From the NCBI GenBank assembly GCA_964373465.1, contig CAYJVA010000001.1, positions 1 through 28,916 of the forward strand: a DNA stretch of 28,916 nucleotides, given 5' to 3'. This stretch comes from an uncultured Gammaproteobacteria bacterium (GTDB lineage: Bacteria; Patescibacteriota; Microgenomatia; UBA1406; HO2-37-13b). Position 1 is the stretch's first letter. The number at the start of each line of letters is the position of its first letter. Positions 6,494 through 28,916 of this stretch are shown in pieces. The position numbers were made by a program, and so were the translations under genes. The notes under the pieces were generated by a model. That model worked only from the letters and a program-made list of their open reading frames with translations. It did not search any database and had not been told where the DNA came from.

Positions 6494-7774
6494 ATGTTAT
6501 CCATAGATTTTATACGGAAAAATAAGGAAAAAGTCATTCAAAATGCGATGAATAAAAATCGTTCTGTTAATATTGATATACTTCTCACACTTGATGATAC
6601 TCGAAAAAAACTCATGAAGTCTATTCAGAGACTTCAGGAGGAAAGAAATATATTGTCTCGACAGAAGGTAGATGATGATATAAAAGTAACCCCGCAGAGC
6701 GGGGTAAAAGTAAAAGGGAGGGAAATAAAACAAAAACTGAAAGAATTAGAAAAAGAGCGAAGCGACATTGAAGTATTGTATCAAAAAGAGCTTTCATTAA
6801 TTCCAAACGTAGCGCTTGATGAAGTTCCTATCGGAAAAGATTCTTCAGGGAATATTGAGATAAGAAAAAGCGGTGATATTCCGAAGTTTTCATTCGTGCC
6901 TCTTTCGCATTTTGACTTAGGAAAAAAGTTAGATATTATTGATCTTGATAGGGGAGTGAAAGTGTCTGGTTTTAGGGGTTATTTTTTGAAAAATCAAGGA
7001 GCTCTACTTCAGATGGCTCTTTTGTGGTATGTGTTTCAAAAGTTAGCATCAAAAGGACATACACCTCTTATCGCTCCATCAATCGTGAAGGGATTTTCAC
7101 TTTTTGGCTCAGGACAGTTTCCATGGGGTGAGGGTGAAGTGTACAAGCTTAATGATGAAGATGCGTATCTTGCAGGGACTGCAGAAGTACCAGTGACTGC
7201 TTATCATGCAGGCGAGATTTTAGATGAAAAAACTTTACCAAGAAAATATATTGCATTTTCTCCCTGCTTTAGGCGAGAGGCTGGTTCGTATGGAAAAGAT
7301 ACGCGAGGTTTGTATCGTCTCCATGAGTTTTGGAAGATTGAGCAAGTGATCATCGCAAAAGATGATATTAATGAGGCAAAAAAACTCCATGAAGAATTGC
7401 AGACTAATACAGAAGAGATTCTCAAAGAGTTGGGATTACCCTATCGTGTACTGCTTATGTGCACCGGAGATATGGGCGAGCCTCAGATAAAAAAATATGA
7501 TACTGAGGTATGGATGCCTTATCGCAAAGGCTGGGGAGAAGTTGCGTCCAATTCTCTCATGGGGGATTTTCAGGCGCGTCGTCTGAATATCAAATATAGG
7601 AAAAAGGATGGGTCAACCGCGTATTGTTATACATTGAACAACACTGCCATTCCCTCACCTCGCGTACTTGTGGCTATTTTGGAAAATTATCAAAAGGAGG
7701 ATGGAAGTGTAGTTATTCCACAGGTTTTACGATCTTTGGTTGGATTTGAACATATACTAAGTAAAAACATTTAA
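6494..7774 (+). CDS. serS: Serine--tRNA ligase carrying an 8-codon palindrome insertion in the N-terminal coiled coil
   Basis: LAGTAEVP, CFRREAGSYGKDTRGLYRLHEF, TLNNTAIPSPR. Confidence 0.97.
   Translation: MLSIDFIRKNKEKVIQNAMNKNRSVNIDILLTLDDTRKKLMKSIQRLQEERNILSRQKVDDDIKVTPQSGVKVKGREIKQKLKELEKERSDIEVLYQKELSLIPNVALDEVPIGKDSSGNIEIRKSGDIPKFSFVPLSHFDLGKKLDIIDLDRGVKVSGFRGYFLKNQGALLQMALLWYVFQKLASKGHTPLIAPSIVKGFSLFGSGQFPWGEGEVYKLNDEDAYLAGTAEVPVTAYHAGEILDEKTLPRKYIAFSPCFRREAGSYGKDTRGLYRLHEFWKIEQVIIAKDDINEAKKLHEELQTNTEEILKELGLPYRVLLMCTGDMGEPQIKKYDTEVWMPYRKGWGEVASNSLMGDFQARRLNIKYRKKDGSTAYCYTLNNTAIPSPRVLVAILENYQKEDGSVVIPQVLRSLVGFEHILSKNI
6681..6712. repeat. In-frame palindromic micro-insertion with flanking direct repeat
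   Basis: TAAAAGTA (6681-6688), ACCCCGC-AGA-GCGGGGT (6689-6705), TAAAAGTA (6705-6712). The 24-nt period equals 8 codons. Confidence 0.85.
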
Positions 7775-7784
7775 TTTTTTTTAT

Positions 7785-8975
7785 ATGATTTTTACAGAAC
7801 CTCAATCTATACAAAAAGAAAATAATACACGTATTAATGAGCCACGTTTCAATATAAAAAAAGTGGATATTAATATTTCCCAAAACCAAGTAAATCTTCT
7901 TTCTGATACTATTTTAACTCAAGGACCTGATAACGATGGAGGAAAATTTAAGGGGAATATTGATAATCTAAGAAATTATGTGGGTGATTTTTGGCCTGGA
8001 CAATTCAGACATGATTATTTTTCCAATATAAACGGCGCTCATTATTTTTTATCTCCAATCTTTAAAGATAGTGTTTTTGGTAGCACAGCAATTTTGGCGT
8101 TATTAGAGCCTGAACTACGATATCGTACAAAGGAATTTTACGGCGCGTCATGGAGAAAAGAAAAATACAATTTCAATGTATATTATCAATCTCAATCTCA
8201 TGGCACATGGCGTATCGCTCATGGGTTTGGTAGGGATAGCGGGCGACTTTTTAAGGCATATCCTAAACACGCTCTTAATTTACCTAATTCATTGCAAGTG
8301 GTTTTAGGAAGAATGATATCTTCAAATAATGTCCAAAATCAAACAGAAAAGAAAGACTTTATGGAATGGCTTGTTCCAATATATAAATGGTCTTTTAATG
8401 AAAGTCAGACCTTCAATGAGCATTTTCAAGATAAGGATGCATGGATTAAAGGATTTGTTGGTATGGAACCACTCAAATGTATGAAGATTGATTTATTAGA
8501 TGAGTTTCCCATGACAATAAAAAGTTCTAGTGGCATTGAATATGTAAAGCCAGAGATGATTAGGTTTAAAAATGAAGGATATAATCCTTGTTATACAAAA
8601 GTCAATGCGGAATTTAATATGATAAGAGAATCTATCGGTTTTGAAAAAGAAACCATTTATGGTAAATTACTATTATCAAATAATAGCGAAATAGAATATC
8701 TTTTTTTTCATAATGAACACGGAAATGTGTGGATTGGAAATATAGAAATGCGTAACCAGGGAATACATCCATATTTAGGAGTAGTAGAAAAACCAATAGA
8801 GGTAACATCTGGTCTTATGTTGTCTGCAATATCTTATAAGCAAGAAATTCCTCAAGGTTATGATACATTGCTTCCATTAGAAAAAAAAGTAGGATGGTTG
8901 TCCTATGCTGACGCATCAGCTTATTTAAATCAAATACCTATGATTCAAGAATTTAAAAGATATTTTGACATTTAA
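7785..8975 (+). CDS. Hypothetical protein (396 aa), no family recognised
   Basis: Long open frame tightly packed between serS and secA; visibly AT-rich. Confidence 0.75.
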   Translation: MIFTEPQSIQKENNTRINEPRFNIKKVDINISQNQVNLLSDTILTQGPDNDGGKFKGNIDNLRNYVGDFWPGQFRHDYFSNINGAHYFLSPIFKDSVFGSTAILALLEPELRYRTKEFYGASWRKEKYNFNVYYQSQSHGTWRIAHGFGRDSGRLFKAYPKHALNLPNSLQVVLGRMISSNNVQNQTEKKDFMEWLVPIYKWSFNESQTFNEHFQDKDAWIKGFVGMEPLKCMKIDLLDEFPMTIKSSSGIEYVKPEMIRFKNEGYNPCYTKVNAEFNMIRESIGFEKETIYGKLLLSNNSEIEYLFFHNEHGNVWIGNIEMRNQGIHPYLGVVEKPIEVTSGLMLSAISYKQEIPQGYDTLLPLEKKVGWLSYADASAYLNQIPMIQEFKRYFDI

Positions 8976-8981
8976 ACCAGT

Positions 8982-11759
8982 ATGTTTTCTTTTTTTAAAA
9001 AATTATTTGACTACAATCAAAAAGAGATTGAGAGATTGCGTAAAATCGTAATGGAGATCAACACCCACGAAGATCGAGCACGTGTCCTTAAAGAGGAAGA
9101 TTTTAAAAAAGAGACAGATATTTTGAAAAAGCACATACAAAATGGTGAAAAAACTTTAGATGAAGTATTGCCATGGGCATACGCGTTGGTTCGTGAAGGA
9201 GCGCGTCGGGTGCTGGGTGAACGGCATTTTGACGAACAGCTTATGGCTGGTGTCGCGCTTCATGAAGGAAAAGTAGCAGAACAAAAAACAGGCGAGGGAA
9301 AAACTCTCTCATCTACCGCGCCTTTGTATCTGAATGCCTTAACAGGAAAAGGAGTGCATCTCGTGACTGTGAATGATTACCTCGCGCGACGCGATGCTGG
9401 ATGGATGGGACAAGTATTTTATATGCTTGGACTTTCAGTATCCGCGATCATATCTGATCATTCATTTTTGTATGATCCGGATTTCACTGATGATACTGCA
9501 ACTGATTGGAGATTGAGAAATCTTCGTGAGATCTCGCGAAAAGAAGCGTATGACTCAGATATTACCTACGGCATCAACTCTGAATTCGGGTTTGATTATC
9601 TGCGCGATAATATGGCAACTTCACCACGCGATTTAAAACAGCGCGGTTTTTATTATGCGATCATTGACGAGGTTGATTCGGTATTGATAGACGAAGCGCG
9701 CACTCCCCACATCATATCAGCTCCGTATGATGAAGATACTTCAAAGTATTATCAATATGCTCAGATAGTGAGTCAATTGGAGATATCCTCAGATTATGTG
9801 ATTGACGAGAAGTTACATACTGCACATCTGACTGAAAGGGGTATTCTCAAAATTGAACAATTGACTGGGGTTTCAAATATCTATGAAAAAGATTTTGATT
9901 CATTATTTCATATAGAAGCGGCGCTTAAAGCACAGACACTTTTTAAAAAGGACAAAGAATATATTGTGGCTCATAATGAAGTCGTGATCGTCGATGAGTT
10001 TACTGGGCGACTTCTGCATGGTAGGCGTTTTTCTGAAGGATTACATCAGGCAATTGAGGCAAAAGAGAATGTGACGATCAAACGTGAGTCAAAAACATTG
10101 GCAACCGTTTCTCTTCAGAACTATTTCAGAATGTATGACAAACTTGCCGGTATGACAGGTACAGCGGAGACTGAAGCAGAAGAATTTCACAAGATTTATA
10201 AACTTGAAGTAATTACGATACCTACTCATCGTCCTTTAGTGCGGAAGGATCATTCAGATATCATATATAAGACGGACAAAGGAAAATTTAACGCGCTTGT
10301 TGAAGAGATAGCTCGTCAGCATAAAACTGGCCGTCCAATACTCGTAGGGACGACTGCTATTGATAAGAATGAACTTCTCTCAACATTGTTGAAACGGAAA
10401 GGGATACCTCATGAGATGTTGAATGCAAAAAATCATGAAAGGGAAGCATATATCATCAGTAATGCAGGGCGAAAAAATGCAGTAACTGTCGCGACAAATA
10501 TGGCCGGTCGTGGCGTGGATATTATATTAGGAGGACAACCTCCAAGTAAGTTTAAAGTCCAAAGTCAAAAGTCAAAAGTCCAAGAAAATGAATATGAAAA
10601 AGAGATGAAGAAGTGGAGGGAGGATCATGATGAGGTTGTGTCGCTTGGAGGATTATACGTGATGGGAACAGAAAGACATGAATCACGGCGTATTGACAAT
10701 CAACTTCGCGGTCGGTCTGGTCGTCAGGGAGATCCCGGGGAGACTCGATTTTTTGTCTCTCTTCAAGATGAAATGATGCGTATTTTCGGAGGTGAACACG
10801 TGTCAAAACTCATGACTTTTTTCAAAATCCCTGAAGATCAACCTCTTGAACATGCGATCGTATCAAAAGCTCTTGAACAAGCACAAGTGAAGGTCGAAGG
10901 GTTTAATTTTGATATACGAAAACATCTTGTTGATTTTGATGATGTGTTGAACAAGCAACGTGAGATACTCTATAAACAGCGAAAAAGTATTTTATCTGCA
11001 GGAACGCGTGATTCATATGAGATTTTTACTCAAAAGATATACGATATTTTTAAGGAAGAAGTTATGCACATCATCACAAATCATACCGTGGGACTTGACG
11101 AACCTCGGGTGGATGAGATGATAGATGAATATCTGACTATTGTGCCTGTGGAAAAAGAAAGCTTTCGCGACAAAATTAAAGACGTTGACACAGAGAAAAT
11201 ATCTGAATTATTAGAGAATGAATTTGAAAATACCTATCGTGCAAAAGAACAGTCCATAGGAAAGGACATATGGCTTGAGATAGTCAAAAATATATATTTG
11301 AGTACTATTGATACTTATTGGACAGAGCATTTGACTGTGATTGAAGATCTGCGCGAGGGTATTAATTTGCGTGGGTATGGACAACTTGATCCTTTGGTAG
11401 AGTATAAAAATGAAGCGTATACCATGTTTGAAAAACTCCTGTCAAATATTAAGTATGATTTTTCAAGAAGGATTTTGAGAATAGAAGTAGCTCAAGATAC
11501 TTCACCTTTGCAAAAGAAATCCCAATCTGTTCACTTGCATTATCAGTCAGCTTCAGCCGTGAATCCGTTTCGTCTTGGCAAGGGAAAGACCCAACAGCAA
11601 GAAAAATCAATTCCTCACGTTTCTCCTCAACAACCATCATCATCGTATGAATTTAAAATTACTCCACCTGGCACACAAAAGAAAAAAATCATGCGCAATG
11701 ATCCGTGTTGGTGTGGTTCAGGTAAAAAATACAAGAAGTGTCATTTGAATAAAGAATGA
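8982..11759 (+). CDS. secA: Preprotein translocase subunit SecA
   Basis: KTGEGKT, VTVNDYLARRD, DEVDS, ATNMAGRG, QLRGRSGRQGDPG, C-terminal SEC-C zinc motif CWCGSGKKYKKCH. Confidence 0.98.
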   Translation: MFSFFKKLFDYNQKEIERLRKIVMEINTHEDRARVLKEEDFKKETDILKKHIQNGEKTLDEVLPWAYALVREGARRVLGERHFDEQLMAGVALHEGKVAEQKTGEGKTLSSTAPLYLNALTGKGVHLVTVNDYLARRDAGWMGQVFYMLGLSVSAIISDHSFLYDPDFTDDTATDWRLRNLREISRKEAYDSDITYGINSEFGFDYLRDNMATSPRDLKQRGFYYAIIDEVDSVLIDEARTPHIISAPYDEDTSKYYQYAQIVSQLEISSDYVIDEKLHTAHLTERGILKIEQLTGVSNIYEKDFDSLFHIEAALKAQTLFKKDKEYIVAHNEVVIVDEFTGRLLHGRRFSEGLHQAIEAKENVTIKRESKTLATVSLQNYFRMYDKLAGMTGTAETEAEEFHKIYKLEVITIPTHRPLVRKDHSDIIYKTDKGKFNALVEEIARQHKTGRPILVGTTAIDKNELLSTLLKRKGIPHEMLNAKNHEREAYIISNAGRKNAVTVATNMAGRGVDIILGGQPPSKFKVQSQKSKVQENEYEKEMKKWREDHDEVVSLGGLYVMGTERHESRRIDNQLRGRSGRQGDPGETRFFVSLQDEMMRIFGGEHVSKLMTFFKIPEDQPLEHAIVSKALEQAQVKVEGFNFDIRKHLVDFDDVLNKQREILYKQRKSILSAGTRDSYEIFTQKIYDIFKEEVMHIITNHTVGLDEPRVDEMIDEYLTIVPVEKESFRDKIKDVDTEKISELLENEFENTYRAKEQSIGKDIWLEIVKNIYLSTIDTYWTEHLTVIEDLREGINLRGYGQLDPLVEYKNEAYTMFEKLLSNIKYDFSRRILRIEVAQDTSPLQKKSQSVHLHYQSASAVNPFRLGKGKTQQQEKSIPHVSPQQPSSSYEFKITPPGTQKKKIMRNDPCWCGSGKKYKKCHLNKE
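10553..10580 (+). repeat. 7-mer tandem array (4 units) inside secA, encoding KVQSQKSKV
   Basis: TAAAGTC CAAAGTC AAAAGTC AAAAGTC. Confidence 0.85.
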
Positions 11760-11783
11760 GGATATCATATACATTTTTAGTTC

Positions 11784-11812
11784 TTGACAGTATAGTGTAT
11801 TCATAGTAAGCT
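11784..11812 (+). promoter_or_regulatory. Sigma70-like promoter, probably giving a leaderless transcript
   Basis: TTGACA-N17-TAAGCT, 7 nt before ATG 11820. Confidence 0.6.
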
Positions 11813-11819
11813 TTTATGT

Positions 11820-12068
11820 ATGGAAAATATCGCAACTTCTAGTAAAACAATCTCTCCACAGCAGTCAAACACAAAGACATTTATTGATCCTGCATATCTT
11901 AAAAAAGGAGTTGCTCTTCCCAAGAAAGGTTTTAGTTTTCTTACTGTTTTTCTTTGTATTATACTTGCCTCATCAGTATGGATTTTTCTTGTCACCATAG
12001 AGATATTACCAAATCCTTATTTGCAAGATAACAATATCAGTGTATTTGTGCCCATTATTAAAAAATAA
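11820..12068 (+). CDS. Small single-pass membrane hypothetical protein (82 aa)
   Basis: Hydrophobic stretch FSFLTVFLCIILASSVWIFLVTIEIL; good promoter directly upstream. Confidence 0.65.
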   Translation: MENIATSSKTISPQQSNTKTFIDPAYLKKGVALPKKGFSFLTVFLCIILASSVWIFLVTIEILPNPYLQDNNISVFVPIIKK

Positions 12069-12131
12069 TCTTTTTTTACGATTTATTTTCTGCTTACTTT
12101 TTAGTAAATAACAGATAAAATATTTTACACA

Positions 12132-13403
12132 ATGTTTCATGAACGTTTAAATACTGTGCTGATAGTTGGAAATGGAGGAAGAGAACATGCCATAGGAGCA
12201 AAACTTGGAGATTCTCCTTATGTCCCAAAACTTTATTTTGCCCCGGGTAATGTAGGCACAGGTCAGCTTGGGACGAATCTTGATATTGGAGTAGAAGACT
12301 TTGATAAACTTGCTCAGTTTGCAAAAGACCATAAAGCGTTTACTGTCGTCGGACCTGAAAAACCAATTGCTTCAGGAATAGAACAGGTGTTCTCTGCAGA
12401 AAAACTTCCTATTTTTGCACCTTCTCGCGAAGCGGCATTACTTGAGTCAAGTAAAGATTGGGCTATCAGATTTATGAAACGGCATAGCATACCCCATCCT
12501 GATTCACGAGTTTTTACTACTGCCTATGAAGCGCTTCGTTTTATTGAGAATCCTCCATGGAAAGTAGTGATTAAAGCAGATGGTTTGGCATCAGGAAAAG
12601 GCGTATATCTTCCCGAGACACAAGAGGATGCGAAACAAGCAATTAATGATTTAATGACATTAGGCACATGTGGAAAGGCAGGAGAGACAATTGTCATACA
12701 AGAAAAACTAAAAGGAAAAGAAGTGTCAATGTTTGCCTTTTGTGACGGTACGACTCTATTGCCTCTATTGCCAGTCGCTGATTATAAGCGGGCATTGGAC
12801 AATGATAAAGGGTCAAATACAGGTGGTATGGGTTCCTACGCTCCTGCAGACGTATCTCATCAGATTATGGAAAGGATAACAAAAACAATACTTATACCTA
12901 CTACCAGAGGGATGAAAAAAGAGGGAAATCCTTATAAGGGCATGCTTTACGTTGGACTTATGCTCACTGACCAAGGACCAAAAGTACTTGAGTATAATGT
13001 TCGATTCGGTGATCCTGAGACGCAGTCTTTGTTGCGACTGATGAGGTCTGATCTTGGCCCCTTGCTTTTGTCCTGTGTTGAAGGCACTTTAGCTTCTCAC
13101 GCGGTAAAATTCTCTCGTGATTCTGCTGTTTGTGTGGTACTTGTTTCTCACGGATACCCAAAAAATTACGAGACCGGTAAGGTGATAAAAGGATTAAATC
13201 AGATTAAAGATCCATCAATACAAGTATTCCACGCAGGCACAATATTAAAAAAAGGAAACATAGTAACAAATGGAGGTCGAGTACTTGGAGTAACAGCCGT
13301 CGCAGATACATTGCCGCATGCTGTTGAGAAAGCCTATAAGGTTATCGGTCACCCTCTCACATTTAACAAAATGCATTACAGAAAAGATATAGGTTATTTA
13401 TAA
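12132..13403 (+). CDS. purD: Phosphoribosylamine--glycine ligase (GAR synthetase)
   Basis: VGNGGREHA, VVGPE, VIKADGLASGKG, DYKRALDNDKGSNTGGMG, LEYNVRFGDPETQ, TNGGRVL. Confidence 0.96.
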   Translation: MFHERLNTVLIVGNGGREHAIGAKLGDSPYVPKLYFAPGNVGTGQLGTNLDIGVEDFDKLAQFAKDHKAFTVVGPEKPIASGIEQVFSAEKLPIFAPSREAALLESSKDWAIRFMKRHSIPHPDSRVFTTAYEALRFIENPPWKVVIKADGLASGKGVYLPETQEDAKQAINDLMTLGTCGKAGETIVIQEKLKGKEVSMFAFCDGTTLLPLLPVADYKRALDNDKGSNTGGMGSYAPADVSHQIMERITKTILIPTTRGMKKEGNPYKGMLYVGLMLTDQGPKVLEYNVRFGDPETQSLLRLMRSDLGPLLLSCVEGTLASHAVKFSRDSAVCVVLVSHGYPKNYETGKVIKGLNQIKDPSIQVFHAGTILKKGNIVTNGGRVLGVTAVADTLPHAVEKAYKVIGHPLTFNKMHYRKDIGYL

Positions 13404-13433
13404 TAAACGGTATGCCCAAAAAATTTATAAAAT

Positions 13434-16025: not shown

Positions 16026-17926
16026 GTTGTTTTTTTATCACCGACTAATCGTATAAATTCTTCATCATCAATTCCCTCTTTTTTGATGAGTTCTTCAGCT
16101 ACAAGATCAAGTTTATCCCGATTGTCCACTATGAGTGATTTTGCTCTGATAAAACATTCATCAAGTATTTTTTTTATTTCGCTATCAATTTTTCCCAGCA
16201 TTTCCTGAGAGATTGAGGACTGTTCATAAAATCCTTTTCCCCATTCAGTTACATCAAAAGTCGGACCAAAATTGACAGGTCCAAGAGAACTCATGCCATA
16301 TTCAACCACCATAGCTTTTGCGATGCGTGTGGCTTGATCAAAATCATTTGCGGCGCCTGTCGTAATCTCTGAAAAAATGACTTCTTCAGCCCCGCGCCCT
16401 CCCATCAAAGAGGTGATGACTTCCAAAAGATGTGTTTTTGTCTCATGCAGTCTATCTTTTGCCGGAGGGATAAGTGTAAATCCTAGAGACATGCCTCGCG
16501 AGATGATGGAGATGCGATGTACTGGGTCCATGGTAGGGAGAAAATGAGTGACTATGGCATGTCCAGCTTCATGATAGGCGGTGATTTTTTTATCCATGTC
16601 TGATTGCAAACGTTTTTTTTCAGGTCCGAGTTTTACTTTTGTCGCGGCTTCTTCAAGGTCTTCCATGGCGATATCTTTTTTTGCTTGACGAGCGGCAAGT
16701 ATCGCGGCTTCATTCAGCATATTTTCAATATCTGCGCCAGAAAAACCAACAGTTCGTTTTGCGACTTTTTCCCATGAGACTGAAGAGAGAAATGGTTTGC
16801 CTTTTGCATGGATTGCAAGGATAGCTTTTCGTCCTTCAAGATCAGGAAAGTCAACTAAAATACGCCGATCAAACCTTCCCGGGCGAAGAAGCGCAGGATC
16901 AAGCAGATCTCCTCGGTTTGTCGCGGCTATGACAATCACGCGTTCGTTGGGTGAGAATCCATCCATCTCAACGAGGATTTGATTCAGGGTTTGCTCACGT
17001 TCATCATGTGCTGAGAGAGCGCCACCTACAGAGCGTGCGCGTCCTATCGCATCAATCTCGTCTATAAAAATGATGGCGGGGGCGCTTTTTTTTGCTGTTG
17101 CGAAAAGATCTCGTGCGCGAGCCGCGCCAATCCCAACTAACATTTCCATAAACTCAGATCCAGCAATGGAGAAAAAAGGCACATTGCACTCTCCTGCGAC
17201 TGCTTTTGCCAGTAATGTTTTACCACATCCTGCCGGTCCTACTAATATAATTCCTTTTGGGGTGCGAGCTCCAAGCTTGGCGTATTTCTCTGGATGCTTG
17301 AGAAAATCTACGACTTCTTCAAGCTCCTTTTTTGCCTCATCAACACCTGCGACATTTGCAAACGTGATACGGGTAATTTGTTTGGAATATTTTTTTGCCC
17401 GTGATTGTCCAAAGGAAAATATTGAATCTTGCGCTCCTCGCGCCTGTCTGAAAATAAATATGAAAAATGCAATCATGAGTACTGTCGGGATGATGTTTGC
17501 AAGCAAATTAAGAAATGCTGATCCTCCTTGTGTATCCTTGACTTGTATTGTCACTTTGGATGGATCAACATCACTGTCTTTTAATATTTTGATAAAACTT
17601 TCATCAGGTTCTTTGGTAGTCGTTGCATTGGATTCATCTTTATAGGTTAGTATGACTTTATTTGCGATAATCTCTGCTTTTTTTACCTTATTATTTTTAA
17701 TATCTTGGATTGTCTGGGTAAGAGTTTTTTCAGGATACAGTTTGGTGACATCCTTGAATGAAAGATATATTGAGAAAAGAAAAAATCCTATAAAAAATAT
17801 GATAAAAAGATTTTTAATATTGAGGTTAAACTTAAGTTCAACAATTTGTTTTCTTTTTTTACCACGGGGTAAGCCATTTTTCCCGTTATTATTTCTTGAT
17901 TGTTGATTATTTATTTCTGCCATCAT
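16022..17926 (-). CDS. ftsH: ATP-dependent zinc metalloprotease FtsH
   Basis: Two TM segments, [40 protein letters not shown]. Confidence 0.98.
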
Positions 17927-17970: not shown

Positions 17971-19071
17971 ATGCAGATACTATCTTATTCTGAATCAGAA
18001 GAGAAAAAAATCATCAATTCTGTCTGTGATATGCTTAGTCAAGGTGGTCTTGTTATTGTTCCTTCAGACACAGTATATGCTCTTGTTGCCGATGCAACAA
18101 ATCAGATAGCAATAAATACACTTTTGGATTTTAAGAAAAGACCTCCAGGAAAGGCAATCTCTGTATTTGTAGACAATCTATCAAAAGCACGTAGTATAGT
18201 TTCTATAAATAAAAAGCAGATGAGCACCATATCTCAATTGATCCCAGGTCCTTTTACGGTAGTCTTGCCTTATAAAAGTGGAGTTGCGCACGGTCTTCTA
18301 TCAGAGAAAAATACTCTTGGAATACGCATACCAGACTATCCTTTTATTAATAAACTTCTTGCTCAATATGGTGTGCCTCTTACTGCTACCTCAGCAAATG
18401 TATCGGGAAGATCTCCTCATTATTCAATACCATCTTTACTCAGTACTTTATCTGATAAAAAAAAGAAATATATACAAATGATTATTGATCGTGGAACACT
18501 TCCCTACAACAAACCTTCAACAGTGATTGATTTGACCGGAGACTCTGTGCGTGTATTACGGCAAGGGAATTATGAGAGAATGAAAGAAAAAGACTTTTAT
18601 TCGTCCAATAATCCAAACGACACGAAAAAGATCGGGTCGTTGCTTTTACGAAAATATCTTAAAATAGCTCAGAATAAACCATTGATATTTTTGATTGAAG
18701 GTGAATTGGGTGCAGGGAAAACAGTCCTTGTGAAAGGAATTGGTGAGGAGCTTGGAGTGAGTCGAATAGTATCACCGACTTTTGTCATCTATTATGAATA
18801 TCCCATCTCAAAAAATGAACTTAAGAAATTGTATCATTTTGATCTTTACGCGATTGAATATGAAGAGGAATTTCATTACTTAAAAATATACGATCTATTA
18901 AAGCCCAAAAATATAATCTGTATTGAATGGGGTGAAAAAAGCACGGCATTGCTTGATCAGTTTCAAAAAAAAGGATTGATAATTTATGTTCGTATCATAT
19001 ACAAAACAGCAACACAAAGGACTATCCAAAGTAGCATATTTAATCATGAGAAAAAATCAGCTCTATGTTAA
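17971..19071 (+). CDS. tsaC-tsaE: Fusion of threonylcarbamoyl-AMP synthase (TsaC/Sua5-YrdC domain) and t6A ATPase TsaE
   Basis: N-terminal PSDTVY, KKRPPGK, TATSANVSG, PSTVID, LRQG. C-terminal GELGAGKT, SPTF, YHFDLY, IEW. One continuous frame. Confidence 0.92.
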   Translation: MQILSYSESEEKKIINSVCDMLSQGGLVIVPSDTVYALVADATNQIAINTLLDFKKRPPGKAISVFVDNLSKARSIVSINKKQMSTISQLIPGPFTVVLPYKSGVAHGLLSEKNTLGIRIPDYPFINKLLAQYGVPLTATSANVSGRSPHYSIPSLLSTLSDKKKKYIQMIIDRGTLPYNKPSTVIDLTGDSVRVLRQGNYERMKEKDFYSSNNPNDTKKIGSLLLRKYLKIAQNKPLIFLIEGELGAGKTVLVKGIGEELGVSRIVSPTFVIYYEYPISKNELKKLYHFDLYAIEYEEEFHYLKIYDLLKPKNIICIEWGEKSTALLDQFQKKGLIIYVRIIYKTATQRTIQSSIFNHEKKSALC

Positions 19072-20129
19072 TTCTTGCGATTGATACCTCATGCGATGAG
19101 ACCTCAGTGGCTCTCACTGAGGGAAGAAAGATTATTGCCAATTCAATCTTCTCACAAGTTTTAATTCATTCGCCATGGGGTGGAGTAGTACCTCATCTGG
19201 CAAAACGCGCTCATGAAGAGAGGATTGATTGGGTGATTGAAAACGCGCTCAAGAAGTCTAAAGTCTCCCGCATGACGGGATCCCGCTCTGCGGGAAAAAG
19301 TCTAAAGTCTAAAGTCATAGAGTATATAGCAGTGACGTATGGGCCTGGGCTTGCGCCAGCGCTTGAAGTAGGAGTAAACAAGGCTAGGGAATTAGCAGAG
19401 AAATATGATAAAAGAATTATTCCTGTCAATCATATGGAAGGACATATTTATTCTTGTTTTGCGCAAAATAGTAAGGGTAACCCGCACAGGGATTTTGATT
19501 TTCCTTATATCGCACTTCTCATATCTGGTGGACACACACAGTTGGTTTTATTTACTTCACATCTTACCTATCAAATAATTGGGGAGACTGTTGATGACGC
19601 GGCAGGTGAGTCTCTTGACAAAGCGGCAAAAATGTTGGGACTGGGATATCCGGGAGGTGCGGTGATTGAACGGTTGGCTCAAAGGGGGGATCCGCGCTAC
19701 CATCAGTTTCCGCGACCACTCTCTCTATCAAAAGATTTTAATTTTTCATTTTCTGGTTTGAAGACTTCATTGTTTTATTATCTTAAAACAATAAGCGAAG
19801 ATGAAAAAAACACTCATCTTGCAGATCTTGCCAGCTCGTTTCAAGAAGCAGTATGTGATAGTCTTTTGGTCAAACTTAAAAATGCAATCCAACGCACTGG
19901 TGTTAATCGTATTTTGGTTGGAGGCGGTGTGGGCGCAAATATATATCTCAGGAAAAAAATAAGAAGTGTGGTTAAAAATATGCGAGGGCATGTATTTTTT
20001 CCACCATTTCCATATCTTTATGGTGATAATGCAGGGATGATTGGAATTGCAGGTTATTTTAAGGCGCAGCGGGGGGTTTTTGTTGAAGATAGAGAAAGTT
20101 TTGATCGAGTTCCTCGATTATCTTTTTGA
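19065..20129 (+). CDS. tsaD: tRNA N6-adenosine threonylcarbamoyltransferase TsaD, with an in-frame repeat insertion
   Basis: ILAIDTSCDET, GGVVP, YGPGL, HMEGH, SGGHT, DDAAGE, FSFSGLKT, DNAGMIG. Confidence 0.97.
   Translation: MLILAIDTSCDETSVALTEGRKIIANSIFSQVLIHSPWGGVVPHLAKRAHEERIDWVIENALKKSKVSRMTGSRSAGKSLKSKVIEYIAVTYGPGLAPALEVGVNKARELAEKYDKRIIPVNHMEGHIYSCFAQNSKGNPHRDFDFPYIALLISGGHTQLVLFTSHLTYQIIGETVDDAAGESLDKAAKMLGLGYPGGAVIERLAQRGDPRYHQFPRPLSLSKDFNFSFSGLKTSLFYYLKTISEDEKNTHLADLASSFQEAVCDSLLVKLKNAIQRTGVNRILVGGGVGANIYLRKKIRSVVKNMRGHVFFPPFPYLYGDNAGMIGIAGYFKAQRGVFVEDRESFDRVPRLSF
19254..19317 (+). repeat. Two tandem 15-nt palindromes embedded in an AAAGTCT 7-mer array inside tsaD
   Basis: AAGTCT AAAGTC, then TCCCG-CATGA-CGGGA and TCCCGC-TCT-GCGGGA (19266-19295, 10 codons, SRMTGSRSAG), then A AAAGTCT AAAGTCT AAAGTCA. 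Confidence 0.9.
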
Positions 20130-20140: not shown

Positions 20141-20235
20141 TATACCGCTTTCAGATGAAATTGCAAGAATATGTTTCATTTTACAGCGGTATAACCCTTC
20201 GTACGTCCCGCCATGGCGGGACTACGATGGGTATA
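20141..20235 (+). mobile_element. TATA-bounded two-hairpin miniature element, copy A (95 nt)
   Basis: TATACCGCT...AGCGGTATA hairpin followed by TATAACCC-TTCGTAC-GTCCCGCCATGGCGGGAC-TACGATGGGTATA; homologous to copies B and C. Confidence 0.8.
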
Positions 20236-21315: not shown

Positions 21316-21440
21316 TATACCCATCGTAGTCCCGCCATGGCGGGACGTACGGAGGGTTATGCCGCTGATCATCGCATACGAGATCCCGCTTTGCGGGAAA
21401 GATGAGACGATTTGTTGCAATCTCATCTGAAAGCGGTATA
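21316..21440 (-). mobile_element. TATA-bounded two-hairpin miniature element, copy B (125 nt), inverted relative to A and C
   Basis: Reverse complement aligns to copy A end to end, plus a 30-nt extra (21369-21398) containing TCCCGC-TTT-GCGGGA. Confidence 0.8.
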
Positions 21441-22856: not shown

Positions 22857-22896
22857 AATGATAATCTTCCGAAGGATAACTGCCACCTATTTTTAT

Positions 22897-23040
22897 TATA
22901 CCCCTTTCAGATGAAATCCGATTTAATCGGATTGAAATTGCAAAAAGATAAATCATCTTACAGCGGTATAACCTCTCATACGTTGAAATTGCTTTTACCT
23001 CCGAATCGGAGGTTTTGCAATTTCAACTACGATAAGTATA
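22897..23040 (+). mobile_element. TATA-bounded two-hairpin miniature element, copy C (144 nt), with nested hairpins
   Basis: TATACCCCTTTCAGATGAAA...AGCGGTATA-ACC...CTACGATAAGTATA. Inserts: TCCGAT-TTA-ATCGGA (22917-22931) and GTTGAAATTGC...GCAATTTCAAC (22982-23027). Confidence 0.8.
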
Positions 23041-23088
23041 CATATAATACCATATAAAAGTTTTTCAAAGCACATATAAAAATTCCTC

Positions 23089-23123: not shown

Positions 23124-23175
23124 TAACAGTTTTTTATAATATTTTTATCACACGTTAGAAAGGAGGTGAAAAAAT

Positions 23176-23601
23176 ATGGCGATAATAAGACTTGATCCAT
23201 TCAGTCCATTCAGATCATTTTTCAGACCAGTATCATGGGACAATGAACAAGACTGGCCTGAAGTAAGCATGACTGAAGGTTTGGATGTCTATGAAGAAGG
23301 TGATTCTATAGTTGCCAAAGCCGCAGTGCCAGGTATTCCCGCTGATAAGGTTGAGGTGACTTATGAAGATGGAGTGCTTCGTATTAAGGCGCGATATGAA
23401 GAATCAGAAGAAGAAAAGAAAAAGAAAAAAGTCGTGTACCGACGTGAGAAAGTCTCCTCATTTAATTACACGACAGTACTTCCAAGAGCAATTGATGAAA
23501 AAAGCATTGAGGCGGAAGTATCAGAAGGTGTTGTGACTATAAGGGCTCATATCGCAGAACAAGCAAAGCCAAAGAAGATAGAAGTAAAATCTCGAAAGTA
23601 A
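23176..23601 (+). CDS. Hsp20/alpha-crystallin small heat-shock protein
   Basis: LDVYEE...AAVPG...GVLRI...LPRAIDEKSIEAEVSEGVVTI...KPKKIEV. Confidence 0.93.
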   Translation: MAIIRLDPFSPFRSFFRPVSWDNEQDWPEVSMTEGLDVYEEGDSIVAKAAVPGIPADKVEVTYEDGVLRIKARYEESEEEKKKKKVVYRREKVSSFNYTTVLPRAIDEKSIEAEVSEGVVTIRAHIAEQAKPKKIEVKSRK

Positions 23602-23635
23602 ATATATCCCTCGTCAATGAGAATGTGTACATTTC

Positions 23636-23674
23636 ACACCTCGGGGGAGTTCGTTCCGATCACCCCCGAGGTGT
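23636..23674. repeat. REP doublet forming a 12-bp stem between hsp20 and radA
   Basis: ACACCTCGGGGG-N15-CCCCCGAGGTGT; shares ACACCTCGG with the RAYT ends; units are 24 nt apart. Confidence 0.8.
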
Positions 23675-23681
23675 CCGGCGT

Positions 23682-23711
23682 TTGCATTTTCATGTAATAA
23701 AGTTATACAAT
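23682..23711 (+). promoter_or_regulatory. Sigma70-like promoter for radA, probably leaderless
   Basis: TTGCAT-N18-TACAAT, 8 nt before ATG 23720. Confidence 0.5.
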
Positions 23712-23719
23712 GAGTTACT

Positions 23720-25012
23720 ATGTCTTTATTTACCTGTTCTTCGTGTGGATACGGATCGGCTTCATGGTATGGAAAATGTCCTTTTTGTAATGAATGGAAT
23801 ACGATGATACAAGAGACCCCACAAACAGGAGAAGAATCTACTCAGCCTGCGATTTTTACTCCGCTTGATAGTCTTTCATCCCTTGAACTGAATAGAAAAA
23901 AAACTGGCGTATTTGAATTTGATAGAGTATTGGGTGGAGGAATAGTGCGGGGATCAGTGATTTTACTTGCAGGAGAACCTGGAGTAGGGAAGTCAACACT
24001 CCTTTTGAAATCGCTTCAGAATCTGCGGACTATGTATATCTCTGGAGAGGAGTCTGGAGCTCAGATTAAGGAAAGGTCCAGGCGTACTCGCCTGACCCAT
24101 TCTTCATTTCATTTTTCTGATCAAGTACAAGTTGAAGGTATCATAAAAGGTCTTTTGGTAAAAATAAAGGAATTTGATGTGGTAGTCGTTGATTCAATCC
24201 AAACCGTATATTCAAAATCAGCTGGAGCACTGATTGGAAGTGTGGTACAAATTAAAGTGGTGACGGCTCAGTTTATTGAGTTTGCAAAAAAAAATCATAA
24301 GGCAGTTATTCTCATAGGGCATATTACAAAAGATGGTGATATCGCAGGCCCCAAAACACTTGAGCATTTGGTTGACTGTGTATTGTATTTTGAAGGCGAT
24401 CGTATGTCTCAATATCGTATATTGCGCGCGCATAAAAATCGCTTTGGATCAACAGATGAGGTCGGGATTTTTGAGATGAAAGAGGAGGGTTTGTGTGAAG
24501 CAAACAATGCGACTGTATTTCTTGATCAGGATCATAAAAACGTACCCGGGAAAGCAATCGTTGGAGTAATGGAGGGAACGCGTCCACTTTTTTTTGAAAT
24601 TGAGAGCTTGGTCGTTGAAAGTGTTTTGAGTATTCCCCGTCGTGTTGCTTCGGGTATAGACTATAATAAACTTTTGTTACTCTTGGCAGTAATACGGAAA
24701 AATTTGTCACTATCTCTTGATCATTTTGATATTTATGTAAATATTGTTGGAGGAGTTGCGATCAAATCTACTGCGGCAGATTGTGGTATTGTTGCATCTA
24801 TCATCTCATCAATTCAAAACATACTAGCACCTCAGAAATCTCTTTTCATAGGAGAGATAGGGCTTTTAGGAGAAATAAGGAAAGTCATGAGAGAAGATAA
24901 AATCATTAAAGAAGCACGCCGTTTTGGTTTTTCATCAATTTATTCTTCAAAAAATGTCAGTTCGGTAAAAGAGCTTTCATTATTGTTACGAGGTAAAAAA
25001 AATGAGGACTAA
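23720..25012 (+). CDS. radA: DNA repair protein RadA/Sms
   Basis: C4 zinc finger CSSC...CPFCNEWNT, GEPGVGKST, SGEES, VVDSIQT, KNRFG, C-terminal Lon-like domain. Confidence 0.97.
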   Translation: MSLFTCSSCGYGSASWYGKCPFCNEWNTMIQETPQTGEESTQPAIFTPLDSLSSLELNRKKTGVFEFDRVLGGGIVRGSVILLAGEPGVGKSTLLLKSLQNLRTMYISGEESGAQIKERSRRTRLTHSSFHFSDQVQVEGIIKGLLVKIKEFDVVVVDSIQTVYSKSAGALIGSVVQIKVVTAQFIEFAKKNHKAVILIGHITKDGDIAGPKTLEHLVDCVLYFEGDRMSQYRILRAHKNRFGSTDEVGIFEMKEEGLCEANNATVFLDQDHKNVPGKAIVGVMEGTRPLFFEIESLVVESVLSIPRRVASGIDYNKLLLLLAVIRKNLSLSLDHFDIYVNIVGGVAIKSTAADCGIVASIISSIQNILAPQKSLFIGEIGLLGEIRKVMREDKIIKEARRFGFSSIYSSKNVSSVKELSLLLRGKKNED

Positions 25013-25914
25013 GGATGAGGATGTTTATTTTCTTTATGATATGCTTCGTATATGCCTGCGACTAAAAATGCTCCATATACTATTGAGATAAGCCATATCA
25101 GCATCCCAAATGGTGATACAAAAAACCCTCCTTTTTCAAATGAAAAACGTATTTTAGACGTAATCACTAAATATTCAAAAATAAGCGGTATGGTACTGGC
25201 GTGAAAAGAGATCTGTACTATTTTTTTATAATGCACGTGGATATTTTTGAGAACAAAGCGCATAATAAAAAAAAGCACGAAAGAGAAAAGTAAAAGATAT
25301 ATTATTTTTAATATGATAAATGAGAAAAGCAGTAGTATATTTATACCAATATATCCAGCTACTATAATTACAGTGAGACGGATAGCAAATGTATCAAAAA
25401 GTATATTCTGCATATTTGTTACTCTGTTTTTGGTGATAAGATATTCATTGTGTGGAGGAAAAGGGTAGGATAAGATACGTCCGGTTCTTGGGTTTCTGAG
25501 TGTAACAGCATTATCATGAAGAAGCGCGAGCGACCTATACTCATTGATTTTCTCAGGTTGGGCAAACGAATCAATTGCAAGAACAGGAGTAGGGAATTTT
25601 TTTAAATCAAACCACATGATATAAGGGTGATCATAGTTCGTAGTTAACTGGCTATTTTTAATTCTAATAACTAAATCAGATGGATAAGAGTTGAGCATTT
25701 CAAAGAGATTTCTATTCAATTGAGAAAATGATTGATCTACAAAAGAAAATTTAATAAAAAAAATAGTAGCAAAAAGAATATGAAGAATTACTATTAAGGT
25801 GATTATATATTTGCATGAAAAAGCAAAACGGGTTTTGAGTATTTTTTTATAATACCCTGCTAAGGGGAAAAGAGAATTGGTAAATATATATAAGAACGTC
25901 TTGACTTTTCTCAT
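25009..25914 (-). CDS. Integral membrane protein, DUF1189-like
   Basis: N-terminal TM, extracytoplasmic loop, several C-terminal TMs, YKKIVQISFHAST. Family assignment is by recollection only. Confidence 0.6.
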   Translation of the reverse strand: MRKVKTFLYIFTNSLFPLAGYYKKILKTRFAFSCKYIITLIVILHILFATIFFIKFSFVDQSFSQLNRNLFEMLNSYPSDLVIRIKNSQLTTNYDHPYIMWFDLKKFPTPVLAIDSFAQPEKINEYRSLALLHDNAVTLRNPRTGRILSYPFPPHNEYLITKNRVTNMQNILFDTFAIRLTVIIVAGYIGINILLLFSFIILKIIYLLLFSFVLFFIMRFVLKNIHVHYKKIVQISFHASTIPLIFEYLVITSKIRFSFEKGGFFVSPFGMLIWLISIVYGAFLVAGIYEAYHKENKHPHP

Positions 25915-25924
25915 ATCTCATTTT

Positions 25925-25996
25925 ATATTAATAGTAATTATTACAAAATGCAAGTAGTTATTTGCTATTGCATTTTTGGTAAAGATAGTATATATT
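25925..25996. promoter_or_regulatory. Divergent sigma70-like promoters for tuf and the membrane-protein gene
   Basis: Plus strand TTGCAT-N17-TATATT (25968-25996); minus strand TTGCAT-N17-TAATAT (25953-25925). Confidence 0.5.
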
Positions 25997-26046
25997 TACC
26001 TTAATTTAGTTTCCAATTATTAAAAATTTTTTTATTTTAATCACCT

Positions 26047-27231
26047 ATGGCACAAGGAGTTTTTCAGAGAAATAAACCACACTTAAATATTGGTACTATT
26101 GGTCATGTTGATCATGGTAAGACTACTCTTACTTCAGCTATCCATCATGTACTTTCCAAAAAAGGATTAGCAAAAGATTTGAAATACGATGAGATTGACA
26201 AAGCTCCAGAAGAAAAAGCTCGTGGAGTAACAATCAATCTTCATCACTCTGAATATGAGACAGAAAAAAGACACTATGCTCATATTGATGCACCCGGCCA
26301 TGCTGATTATATTAAAAATATGATCACAGGCGCCGCTCAAATGGATGGGGCGATTTTGGTCGTATCTGCTCCAGATGGTCCAATGCCTCAGACTCGAGAA
26401 CACATTCTTCTTGCTCGTCAAGTAAATGTGCCCGCTATAGTCGTTTTTCTCAACAAAGTAGACATGGTATCTGATAAAGAAATTCTTGATTTAGTTGAGA
26501 TGGAAGTGCGAGATCTTCTGAAAAAATACAAATTTCCCGGAGATACCATACCCATCATTCGTGGTTCGGCGCTTAAAGCCATAGAGGATGATCCAGAATC
26601 AATGAAATCAATTGAAACATTGATGAAGACTATTGACGAATATGTGCCTGATCCCATTCGTGATATAGATAAACCTTTCTTGATGCCAATTGAAGATATT
26701 TTTACTATTCAAGGAAGAGGAACCGTAGTGACTGGACGTGTTGAACGTGGTATTCTGAAGGTGAATGAAGAGATTGAGATCGTGGGACTGAAGGCGACTC
26801 AAAAAACAGTCATTACTGGGGTTGAAATGTTTCGGAAAAGTCTTGACGAAGCACGCGCAGGAGACAATGTGGGATTGCTTCTTCGTGGCATTGAGAAAAA
26901 TCAAGTAGAGCGAGGTCAAGTGATAGCAAAACCAGGTACTGTCACGCCCCATACTGAATTTGAAGCTGAGATCTATGTGCTTACTAAAGAAGAAGGTGGT
27001 CGTCATACTCCTTTTTTTACTGGATATAGACCTCAATTCTTCTTTCGCACCACAGATGTGACTGGTGAGGCGACATTGCCTCAGGGAGTTGAGATGGTGA
27101 TGCCTGGAGACAATGTAAAAATCACGGGTAAAATCATCTATCCTGTTGCTATGGAAGAAGGGGTAAAGTTTGCCATACGTGAAGGTGGACACACAGTAGG
27201 AGCTGGAGTAGTCACTAAAGTTATTAAATAG
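26047..27231 (+). CDS. tuf: Elongation factor Tu
   Basis: [39 protein letters not shown]. Confidence 0.99.
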
Positions 27232-27310
27232 TTATAATTAGTTTAATTGGTTATAATTAGTTTAATTGGTATAACTAATTCAACCAACTCTGACTAATTA
27301 CAACTATAAC
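27231..27310. repeat. Repeat-built imperfect hairpin filling the tuf-rpsJ spacer
   Basis: GTTATAATTAGTTTAATTG x2 (27231-27268), followed by complementary blocks AACTAATT, AACCAA and TATAAC. Confidence 0.7.
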
Positions 27311-27326
27311 AGTGCTCTTTTACAAT

Positions 27327-27635
27327 ATGCCAAAAGGACGTATACGAATAAAATTAAAATCTTTTGATCATCGTTTAATTGATGAGACGTGTGAAAAGCT
27401 CGTGGGCACTGCACATAAGACAGGCGCATCAGTCGTCGGACCTATTCCTCTCCCTACTAAAAAAGAGATATATGTCGTGAATAAGTCTACTTTCACTGAT
27501 AAAGATAGTCGTGAACATTTTGGCTTAAAAACTCATAAAAGACTCCTTGATATCATAAATCCAACTAATCAGACGATTGACTCCCTCATGCATCTTGATC
27601 TTCCAGCAGGGATTGATGTGGAGATTAAGATGTAG
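27327..27635 (+). CDS. rpsJ: 30S ribosomal protein S10 (uS10)
   Basis: RIRIKLKSFDHRLID, GPIPLPT, SREHF, HKRLLDI, LDLPAGIDVEIK. Start is ATG 27327. Confidence 0.98.
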   Translation: MPKGRIRIKLKSFDHRLIDETCEKLVGTAHKTGASVVGPIPLPTKKEIYVVNKSTFTDKDSREHFGLKTHKRLLDIINPTNQTIDSLMHLDLPAGIDVEIKM

Positions 27636-27673
27636 TATATATTTTTCTCATTTTAAAGGTAAAAATATAGTCC

Positions 27674-28452
27674 ATGTTAAAAGAAATGCGTCAATTACAT
27701 AAAAAAAAGAGTGAGCCTACCTTATATTTATTAAATCGTTATATAAAAGACGATGAAAAAAAACAATTGTGGCAAGTCATAAGCCAACAATCGTTGTTAA
27801 CAGTTATAATGAAAAAACCTTTTTAGATAGGTCTCTTAATACAATTATTGATTTTATATGCAAGGATAAAGCGTCCTATGAAACATTGCCTGAAGAATTT
27901 CCAAAAACGGCGTTAACTAGATTTAAAGCTTGTCAGTTAGTAACTCAGTCATTGGGGACAGGTGGTGAACGTTTATACTCTCGTTTAGCTCATTTGTGGC
28001 CAATGCCTATTCCCCCAAAAGATGGTCATGAATTAGAAATCATAATTCCCGCAGTTTTTAGTTCAGATGTGGACATTTATATTTATAACGCACCTCAAAA
28101 TTTTTATAGATCGGTATATCTTTGCGGAATTCTTGAGTGGTTTTCTGAAGAATATTTCGGATCAAGAAGAGGATTAATAAGGGATGTATCATATGAAGTA
28201 GATTCTGATTATATTGATTTGAGCGAGATCAAACATGTTGATGAGTTAGAAGAAAAAATGATAAAGAGGAAAAGACAAATTTTTTCCTCACGGTCTACTA
28301 TTTGGTATGGACTTGAGACATTGATACAGAATAGACAAGAGCGTTTTGATCGTATAAAAGAATATTAACAGGATTGGTTTCCCGGAGAATTGATTAAAGC
28401 AAGAAAGGGCGTTGAAGAAATGAGAGAATGGTTATTAACTCTTAAAGTTTAA
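27674..28452 (+). pseudogene. Probably broken hypothetical gene: frameshift at an A8 run plus an internal TAA; longest open piece is 27769..28368
   Basis: ATG 27674 frame reaches GAT-G-A8 (27756-27763); the -1 frame opens exactly there. After TAA 28366-28368 the same frame continues 27 codons (QDWFPGELIK...LKV*). Confidence 0.5.
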
Positions 28453-28529
28453 CGAAGTTATTTTTATAATGAGTTTTCATCTTTTTATCTTTTTCACCTC
28501 AATGGGCAAAAGGATGGCAAGAGATAATA

Positions 28530-28857
28530 CCTGACTTTCTCAAATTAGTGTCCTGATCGTAATTTTCGTATAAGCATTTTAATGTCTGTTATGGTGAAAA
28601 ATAGGTCTGGCTTTAAGATCAGATTTACTCATACGAAATGATTGCTCCACATGCCATAGTTGATGATAAGAGGCAATGATCTGCTCGTCAGGTAATTCCA
28701 GGTTGGTGATATACCCTTTAATGCAGACTAATGCTTTGGCTTTATCAATAAGTAGTTGATTAAGCTTTTTTTCTTTCGTTTTTAGCTTTAAAAATTTTGC
28801 TTTCTTGTTAGTAGTCTTTCCACGTAATCGTTCAGGGTTTGATAAAGACAGTGTCAA
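28530..28857 (-). mobile_element. Internally deleted IS1634-family (DDE) transposase remnant with one terminal repeat
   Basis: IKGYITN...YHQLWHVEQSFRMSKSDLKARPIFH. A short tail in another frame (KMLIRKLRSGH*, 28580-28545) is followed by CCTGACTTTCTC at 28530, matching my recollection of IS1634-type ends. Confidence 0.8.
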
Positions 28858-28861
28858 AATG

Positions 28862-28916
28862 TGTCATGCCCGCCTGCCGTCGGGCAGGCTGAATTTATCC
28901 ACGCCTTTGGCGGGAT
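28862..28916. repeat. REP-like cluster of nested GC-rich palindromes, cut by the window edge
   Basis: TGTCATG...CTGAATTT interrupted by GCCTGCC-GTCG-GGCAGGC (28872-28889), then ATCC(A)CGCC-TTT-GGCGGGAT (28897-28916). Confidence 0.7.

Follow-up and report, generated by a model that had tools for sequence, protein, structure and literature searches.

Short GC-rich hairpins nested in heptamer tracts of housekeeping genes: candidate ultra-small mobile elements in an AT-rich patescibacterial genome

In a 28,916-nt contig of an uncultured bacterium (GenBank assembly GCA_964373465.1, contig CAYJVA010000001.1; Patescibacteriota, Microgenomatia, by its GTDB lineage), the housekeeping genes serS and tsaD contain GC-rich palindromes of 17 and 2 x 15 nt that are translated as part of the proteins. 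This whole stretch, here called the window, is contig 1 of a 904-kb genome assembled in 120 contigs, with a GC content of 36%. How did such GC-rich palindromes come to lie within essential genes of an AT-rich genome? A preliminary description of the window had listed seven related palindromes and proposed that they represent a minimal mobile hairpin that adds peptides to housekeeping proteins. Our analysis supports this proposal through empty sites in a close relative, non-conserved peptides and genome-wide enrichment. We consider it probable that the palindromes are ultra-small, non-autonomous, insertional GC-hairpin DNA elements that have been copied into many sites of this genome.

All seven palindromes were found where they had been described. 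In addition to the serS copy and the two units in tsaD (Table 1), they lie at 20206-20221, 21330-21345, 21384-21398 and 28897-28916, the last being imperfect and truncated by the contig end. The sequences are closely related: the 13-nt core of the serS copy is the reverse complement of that in the second tsaD unit and has one mismatch at 21385-21397, while the unit at 21384-21398 and the second tsaD unit have 14 of 15 positions in common. All seven are real, but three of them (20206, 21330 and 21384) are no independent insertions, as they belong to two copies of a repeat resembling a miniature inverted-repeat transposable element (MITE). The strict motif CCCGC-N3-6-GCGGG occurs five times in the window, compared with none in 100 shuffles, and 70 times in the genome, compared with 0-2 in 20 Markov shuffles, and is thus much commoner in the genome than in shuffled sequence. 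GC-rich hairpins of any sequence number 361 in the genome versus 68-98 in shuffles. When folded as single-stranded DNA, the serS and tsaD hairpins gave z values of about -4.9 relative to shuffled sequence.

The 70 hits fall into distinct settings, with 45 in the MITE-like element, 12 in A-rich heptamer tracts, four in rRNA helices and nine in other places. The four rRNA matches, in 16S and 23S genes, are native helices and were excluded as dispersed insertions. Three types of hairpin module were recognized: a 15-16-nt unit (TCCCGC-loop-GCGGGA), the 30-nt doublet of this unit and a 19-nt hairpin (ACCCCGAT-loop-ATCGGGGT). The native helix tips at 17531-17547 and 17804-17820 of contig C8, within the 16S gene, equal the 17-nt core of the dispersed 19-nt hairpin, which is either a coincidence or a hint of the origin of this hairpin.

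The 12 strict hits in heptamer tracts represent ten loci in A-rich 7-nt tandem tracts, and adding the 19-nt hairpin type brings the number of tract loci to 15. Eleven of the 15 lie within long open reading frames (ORFs), coding for SerRS, TsaD, ATP-dependent DNA ligase, LeuRS, ArgRS, RNase H, a GT2 glycosyltransferase, an ArnT-like membrane glycosyltransferase, HolB, TatD and GatB. Since approximately 91% of the genome lies within ORFs of at least 100 codons, coding sequence is not enriched for tract hairpins. The preliminary description had named translation genes as the sites of insertion. A specificity for such genes is rejected, as only five of the eleven coding loci are translation-related, the others being those for DNA ligase, RNase H, HolB, TatD and the two glycosyltransferases.

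Within genes, hairpins were always found in A-rich 7-nt tandem tracts and always in one phase, after xTx and before AAAA. In this genome, GTC, GTT or ATG precedes the hairpin and AAAA follows it, the heptamer being of the AAAAGTC type; in tsaD, the doublet is flanked by the GTC and the AAAA of one heptamer. The heptamer tracts are an addition to the model of coding copies given in the preliminary description. At all 11 coding loci, the A-rich strand is the sense strand. The A-rich strand also has positive GC skew at 14 of 15 tract loci, versus 64% of ORFs, a signal that is confounded with the coding strand; a replication-strand bias was therefore set aside. An unoccupied tract, made of AAAGTC-type heptamers with no hairpin, lies in secA (10548..10580, + strand). 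A contig of the source-like run X1 carries a repeat of the 33 nt at this secA tract, which suggests in-frame length polymorphism.

The 15-nt unit is translated in all three frames. It is read as S-R-x-A-G in TsaD and GatB, as P-A-x-R in the GT2 enzyme, DNA ligase and LeuRS, and as P-x-x-G in SerRS, HolB and the ArnT-like protein. Since the unit is read in three frames, it is the DNA that recurs and not the peptide, and a conserved peptide is ruled out by the use of all three frames together with its absence in congeners. Rather than a peptide conserved after loss of the palindrome, serS shows a peptide that differs between species and a hairpin that is retained. Coding hairpins are read through in any frame, giving rise to loops rich in Gly, Pro, Arg and Ser.

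Inserted modules measure 15, 16, 17, 19, 21 or 30 nt, some of which are not multiples of three. All measurable net changes are multiples of three (12, 12, 12, 24, 30, 42, 45, 72, 72 and 75 nt), and those that can be resolved equal a module plus or minus heptamers (17+7 = 24, 19-7 = 12). The earlier statement that coding copies keep the frame therefore holds for the measurable net lengths, with a refinement for serS, where the net 24 nt resolve into the 17-nt palindrome and one duplicated 7-nt unit, together an eight-residue insert. The heptamer tract may serve as a frame buffer, in which gain or loss of one or two units would restore the frame after an insertion of any length. Because 7 equals 1 modulo 3, slippage within a heptamer tract can make good a frameshift of either kind, and such buffering would explain why coding copies are confined to heptamer tracts.

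To follow the elements between species, we used the whole genome of a same-genus relative, a soil metagenome-assembled genome (MAG). It contains 14 strict motifs, versus 70 here, and is empty at 10 of 15 compared loci, namely tsaD and nine others (on contigs C6, C46, C48, C62, C70, C71, C104, C18 and C65); the empty alleles that a mobile hairpin should leave among close relatives are thus present. TsaD is 15 residues longer than its same-genus orthologue, which has neither hairpins nor tract. In the ArnT-like gene on C48, a 34-nt heptamer tract is common to both species, with 75 nt here and 45 nt in the relative; the difference is exactly the 30-nt doublet, without any duplication. One locus shows the reciprocal arrangement, being filled in the relative and empty in this genome, and its net 12 nt correspond to a 19-nt module minus one heptamer. 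Two loci, LeuRS and serS, are common to both species. In the LeuRS copy of the relative, one arm has two changes that are uncompensated. The serS hairpin of the relative has the same length, reached by two double changes and one wobble, and the peptide reads TELSS there and TPQSG here. In all other genera, SerRS is without precisely those eight residues that contain the palindrome, and the insert is confined to this genus. Furthermore, doublet subfamilies with common loop variants occur at unrelated loci, and the two species have in common, at non-orthologous loci, a stretch of about 54 nt with 96% identity. Altogether, these comparisons show gains and losses of hairpins between two congeneric species and entry of the 30-nt doublet without target duplication.

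Differences were also sought at the level of strains. Contigs from four public sequencing runs showed no indel at the serS or tsaD hairpins; because contigs hide rare variants, this null result for population polymorphism is weak. A strain about 97% identical, from run X2, carries 34 extra letters and an 8-nt repeat at window positions 7610-7617, in the C-terminal part of serS. This insertion, a net in-frame gain of 42 nt that contains the 19-nt hairpin type, marks a second serS site and is a strain-level filled/empty difference. Among metagenome relatives of TsaD, the best of which are 68-78% identical, no intermediate alleles were found.

The MITE-like family provides independent evidence that the doublet is an insertion unit. 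The element measures 91-151 nt, is bounded by TATA and has two hairpin slots, with GTAG beside the second; 39 full copies were found, many of them at contig ends, and nearly none in the same-genus genome. When 30 nt are removed from copy B, a collinear 95-nt element remains, the insertion having occurred without duplication. It had been noted before that the extra 30 nt of this copy repeat the tsaD doublet, and copy B is indeed exactly 30 nt longer than the 95-nt form. At the insertion point of copy B, a second subfamily holds another 30-nt doublet, and a third has a 28-nt doublet at another point. Since doublets are nested in this way within the family, the recurrence of one doublet in tsaD and in copy B is meaningful. 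Cargo has been swapped or added between subfamilies, and some copies have three or four hairpins in a row. These data show that the hairpins also nest in the loops of MITE-like elements. A composite repeat that starts at 28861 has complete copies on C6, C10, C20, C22 and C23; the 20-nt GC hairpin is nested in the window copy and in one other.

The positions of the inserts in the SerRS and TsaD models, which are otherwise confident, point to low-confidence surface loops, which are likely to be permissive. The AlphaFold model of TsaD has a mean predicted local distance difference test score (pLDDT) of 91, with values of 59-78 over residues 61-80, a range that covers the insert; the insert itself is placed between a long helix and the next strand. 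In SerRS, the insert at residues 64-71 is predicted to form the tip between two long helices of the tRNA-binding arm, and pLDDT is below 50 at residues 59-68. The TsaD loop, located before the conserved AVTxGPG motif, is a general insertion hot spot: 24 of 72 homologues (loci L031-L060 and L221-L300) have 7-48 extra residues there, consisting of other heptamer repeats and other palindromes, some of them resembling repetitive extragenic palindromic (REP) sequences.

We extended these observations by scanning approximately 185,000 species genomes for the doublet joined to AAAAA, leaving the left flank unconstrained. The scan returned 64 loci versus about 0.3 expected by chance, in many classes of Patescibacteria, in Omnitrophota, in Ignavibacteria-type genomes and in some gammaproteobacterial MAGs. 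TTG lies directly 5' of the doublet in 35 of 42 parsed copies and the right flank consists of TTGAAAA repeats; thus, the doublet again splits a heptamer, here between TTG and AAAA. Perfect 30-nt palindromes account for five of the 42. An ATG start codon immediately precedes the doublet in several genomes, with AAA following. Counts of the 15-nt unit in 41 relatives were 13, 13, 12, 7, 5, 5, 3, 3, 2, 1, 1 and 1, with zero in the remaining 29, and a reversed-pattern control gave zero in all 41. In other copy-rich relatives, the unit mostly caps longer hairpins and does not lie in tracts. Several carriers may therefore reuse the short unit or have received it by insertion, and some occurrences may be convergent. 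At ten Omnitrophota loci (L165, L167, L169, L170, L173, L178, L187, L197, L198 and L203), a first hairpin, whose loop measures about 20 nt, precedes the same second unit and AAAAA, and GATTACAG-type repeats lie on the flanks; here the module has a different carrier. A phage origin was rejected, as the doublet had no match in viral contigs; the 19-nt hairpin type had three matches there only.

As for the way in which the hairpins move, a trans-acting, structure-specific enzyme could mobilize them on single-stranded DNA and integrate them at exposed A-rich tracts. A Y1 HUH enzyme, of the TnpA type or of the type of the REP-associated tyrosine transposases (RAYT), is our first and tentative guess, because insertion of the doublet is hairpin-dependent and occurs without duplication. 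The genome has six Y1 (HUH) genes, one in the window (2858-3571) and the others on contigs C5, C8, C16, C46 and C90. Three are RAYT-like and code for about 230 residues, two code for about 165 residues and one is an IS200-type TnpA. Each of the three RAYT-like genes is accompanied by its own REPs, which are of three different types. Within 300 nt around each of the six genes, we found other hairpins or none, and the motif never flanked the gene. The RAYT of the window, whose REP palindrome is different, was ruled out as the enzyme on these grounds, in agreement with the preliminary description, which had noted both this difference and the absence of an evident cognate enzyme. Heptamer-embedded units, flanked by T...A and A-rich repeats, carry no GTAG or CGTC tag; GTAG was seen only on the MITE-like carrier. 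Between congeners, six Y1 genes and 13 units here compare with one Y1 gene and two units in the hairpin-poor sister. The Y1 expansion in this genome parallels the expansion of hairpin repeats, and no sequence link between them was found. Among relatives, 12 units were counted in G039, which at 96% completeness gave no Y1_Tnp match, while G012 has nine Y1 matches and one unit.

Features of the window are collected in Table 1. Its genes include those for AlaRS, the RAYT-like Y1 transposase, GreA, LysRS, SerRS, SecA, PurD, enolase, a 5'-nuclease, FtsH, a TsaC-TsaE fusion, TsaD, a DsbA-like protein, a DNA methylase, Hsp20, RadA, EF-Tu and S10. The fusion is a single ORF (17971-19071) that joins Sua5/YrdC (TsaC) and TsaE domains and lies immediately upstream of tsaD, overlapping it.

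Table 1. Hairpins, heptamer repeats and associated elements in the window
Feature	Position	Strand	Remarks
RAYT-like Y1 (HUH) transposase gene	2858..3571	-	own different REPs at 2784-2823 and 3553-3592
AAAAGTA direct repeat, left copy, flank of serS palindrome	6682..6688	+	7 nt
serS palindrome	6689..6705	+	17-nt perfect GC palindrome; within translated KVTPQSGV, residues 64-71
AAAAGTA direct repeat, right copy, flank of serS palindrome	6706..6712	+	7 nt
tsaD heptamer tract, left part	19254..19265	+	AAAGTC-type; missing from same-genus tsaD
tsaD 30-nt doublet	19266..19295	+	two 15-nt units, 19266-19280 and 19281-19295; translated SRMTGSRSAG, residues 68-77
tsaD heptamer tract, right part	19296..19317	+	
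MITE-like copy A	20141..20235	+	95 nt; 16-nt GC palindrome 20206-20221 in second hairpin slot
MITE-like copy B	21316..21440	-	125 nt; nested 30-nt doublet 21369-21398; GC palindrome 21330-21345
MITE-like copy C	22897..23040	+	144 nt; other hairpin cargo
Composite repeat start	28861..28916	+	nested 20-nt GC hairpin; 28897-28916 = first doublet unit, truncated by contig end

If the hairpins are mobile elements, they would be passengers with little function for the host. Several observations weigh against such an origin. Movement was not seen directly, the contigs of the four runs being uniform at the serS and tsaD hairpins, and no enzyme is linked to the elements, given that the six Y1 genes are unflanked and that the 12-copy relative has no Y1_Tnp match. 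The serS hairpin is retained in both species by way of two compensatory pair changes, which could reflect selection on structure and not neutrality. The non-tract single hairpins, in serS and in the run X2 strain, have 7-8-nt direct repeats, and these fit a staggered-cut transposase better than an HUH enzyme. Finally, with the 15-nt unit mostly capping longer hairpins in other relatives, a short GC clamp could have arisen repeatedly. The hairpins might instead be selected structural elements and not selfish DNA, either mRNA hairpins acting in stability, pausing or processing, or binding sites for a conserved host protein, located at tolerant positions. Consistent with this, two double changes and one wobble preserve the serS hairpin while the peptide changes, stems are conserved and loops variable across phyla, the doublet of other genomes often follows ATG directly or separates it from the ribosome-binding site, and the A-rich strand is the sense strand at every coding locus. 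We nevertheless regard selected structure as unlikely. The sister genome is empty at two-thirds of the loci (10/15) and essential genes function there without hairpins; its LeuRS copy is decaying; and the positions within genes are unrelated to each other and coincide with permissive loops. An Rfam scan of the window returned two tRNAs only and no match at the tsaD hairpins, which rules out a known RNA family. In addition, templated correction in quasi-palindromes can mimic compensatory change without selection.

The 7-nt repeats themselves raise two further explanations. Palindromes might arise in place, by replication slippage or template switching in unstable heptamer tracts, in keeping with their constant location in slippage-prone 7-nt tracts, with tract lengths that vary between species and even within one sample, and with net length changes in whole heptamers (17+7, 19-7). 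We disfavour this origin as very improbable: A-rich flanks cannot template GC-rich sequence, the same 15- and 30-nt sequences are present at unrelated loci, in the MITE and in 64 loci of other phyla, and common loop variants define subfamilies. Alternatively, the hairpins could be MITEs of a DDE transposon with no cargo at all. The two 15-nt units would then be terminal inverted repeats that abut, a full-length parent element would exist elsewhere, and the 7-nt tracts would have built up from target-site duplications or from footprints of excision. Formally, the doublet consists of two inverted units, perfect over 30 nt in 5 of 42 copies, the direct repeats around the serS palindrome (7 nt) and the run X2 insertion (7-8 nt) equal the tract period, and a 92-codon ORF beside the composite repeat, at 28579-28857, has a weak match to a DDE transposase (E = 0.014), possibly a fragment. 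However, four doublet insertions are clean, without duplication, in other genomes the copies that follow start codons lack flanking repeats, and this genome showed no longer element with the units at its ends. A DDE origin appears unlikely to us.

Our literature search found no description of this hairpin element. The closest published kind is the small dispersed repeats SDR4-6 of Nostoc and its relatives, very small mobile repeats that Elhai and co-workers reportedly described in 2008 as nested in tandem heptamer repeats (short tandemly repeated repetitive sequences, STRR). These repeats are tens of nucleotides long, hairpin-forming and non-coding, occupy a set position in 7-nt tandem repeats, differ in presence between close relatives, nest in other repeats, have copies inside genes and have no known enzyme. 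In the genome studied here, hairpin-forming, non-coding units of 15, 19 and 30 nt lie at 15 tract loci and in about 39 MITE copies, their heptamer position is fixed (GTC, GTT or ATG before and AAAA after, with TTG on the 5' side in 35/42 copies elsewhere), and ten orthologous sites are empty, with one reciprocal case. The hairpins described here differ in belonging to Patescibacteria and others and not to cyanobacteria, and apparently also in sequence, being 15-nt GC palindromes, commonly in 30-nt doublets, in A-rich heptamers mostly inside essential genes of a 0.9-Mb genome. The Rickettsia palindromic elements (RPEs), to which the palindromes had first been compared, were reportedly described by Ogata and co-workers in 2000 as palindromic selfish DNA of about 100-150 bp that enters housekeeping genes in frame and adds surface loops to their products. 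The likeness lies in this in-frame, translated habit, whereas the elements described here measure 15-30 nt, well below RPE size, and RPEs are not known to be tied to heptamer tracts. Since the cyanobacterial repeats are equally small, the kind is not unprecedented and RPEs are not its closest example.

Two other families of short hairpins invite comparison. REPs and REPINs are mobilized by RAYT (Y1 HUH) transposases, and intragenic REPs have been documented (PMC3116915; PMC3733652); the hallmark of a REP is an unpaired GTAG or CGTC tag beside the stem (PMC3733652). Like these, the hairpins studied here are short, often arranged as inverted doublets and present in many dispersed copies, in a genome with six Y1 genes versus one in the sister. 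Unlike them, heptamer-embedded units have no tag, flank no RAYT and are mostly intragenic, and the 12-copy relative has no Y1 gene. The GC clusters of yeast mitochondria also are GC hairpins in an AT-rich genome, with loop-biased substitutions, merging and shuffling of units, and a mechanism that is not known (PMC4478555). These are organellar and mostly intergenic, measure about 40 nt and, in GC42 for example, have a putative 2-nt target duplication (PMC4478555); they also differ from the present hairpins in having no heptamer tracts.

We advance, as a doubtful extension, that hairpins and 7-nt tracts form one undescribed transposition system of Patescibacteria, Omnitrophota and other AT-rich uncultivated bacteria, in which an enzyme inserts the bare hairpin at one phase of the heptamer and the 7-nt period is both the footprint of the reaction and the frame corrector. 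If the hairpins are mobile, essential enzymes (SerRS, LeuRS, ArgRS, GatB, TsaD, DNA ligase and HolB) would have been lengthened by 15-30 nt of selfish DNA, and such hairpins would explain many species-specific loops in very small genomes. Hairpin repeats would also break assemblies, many contigs ending in them, and create spurious differences between orthologues. Transposition with almost no sequence of its own would become testable, the fixed phase and the clean 30-nt pairs offering biochemical substrates. Should the hairpin-plus-heptamer system be real, it would rank with the smallest known mobile DNAs and would be a major cause of protein-length variation in reduced genomes, with a built-in frame correction that lets the elements colonize essential genes.

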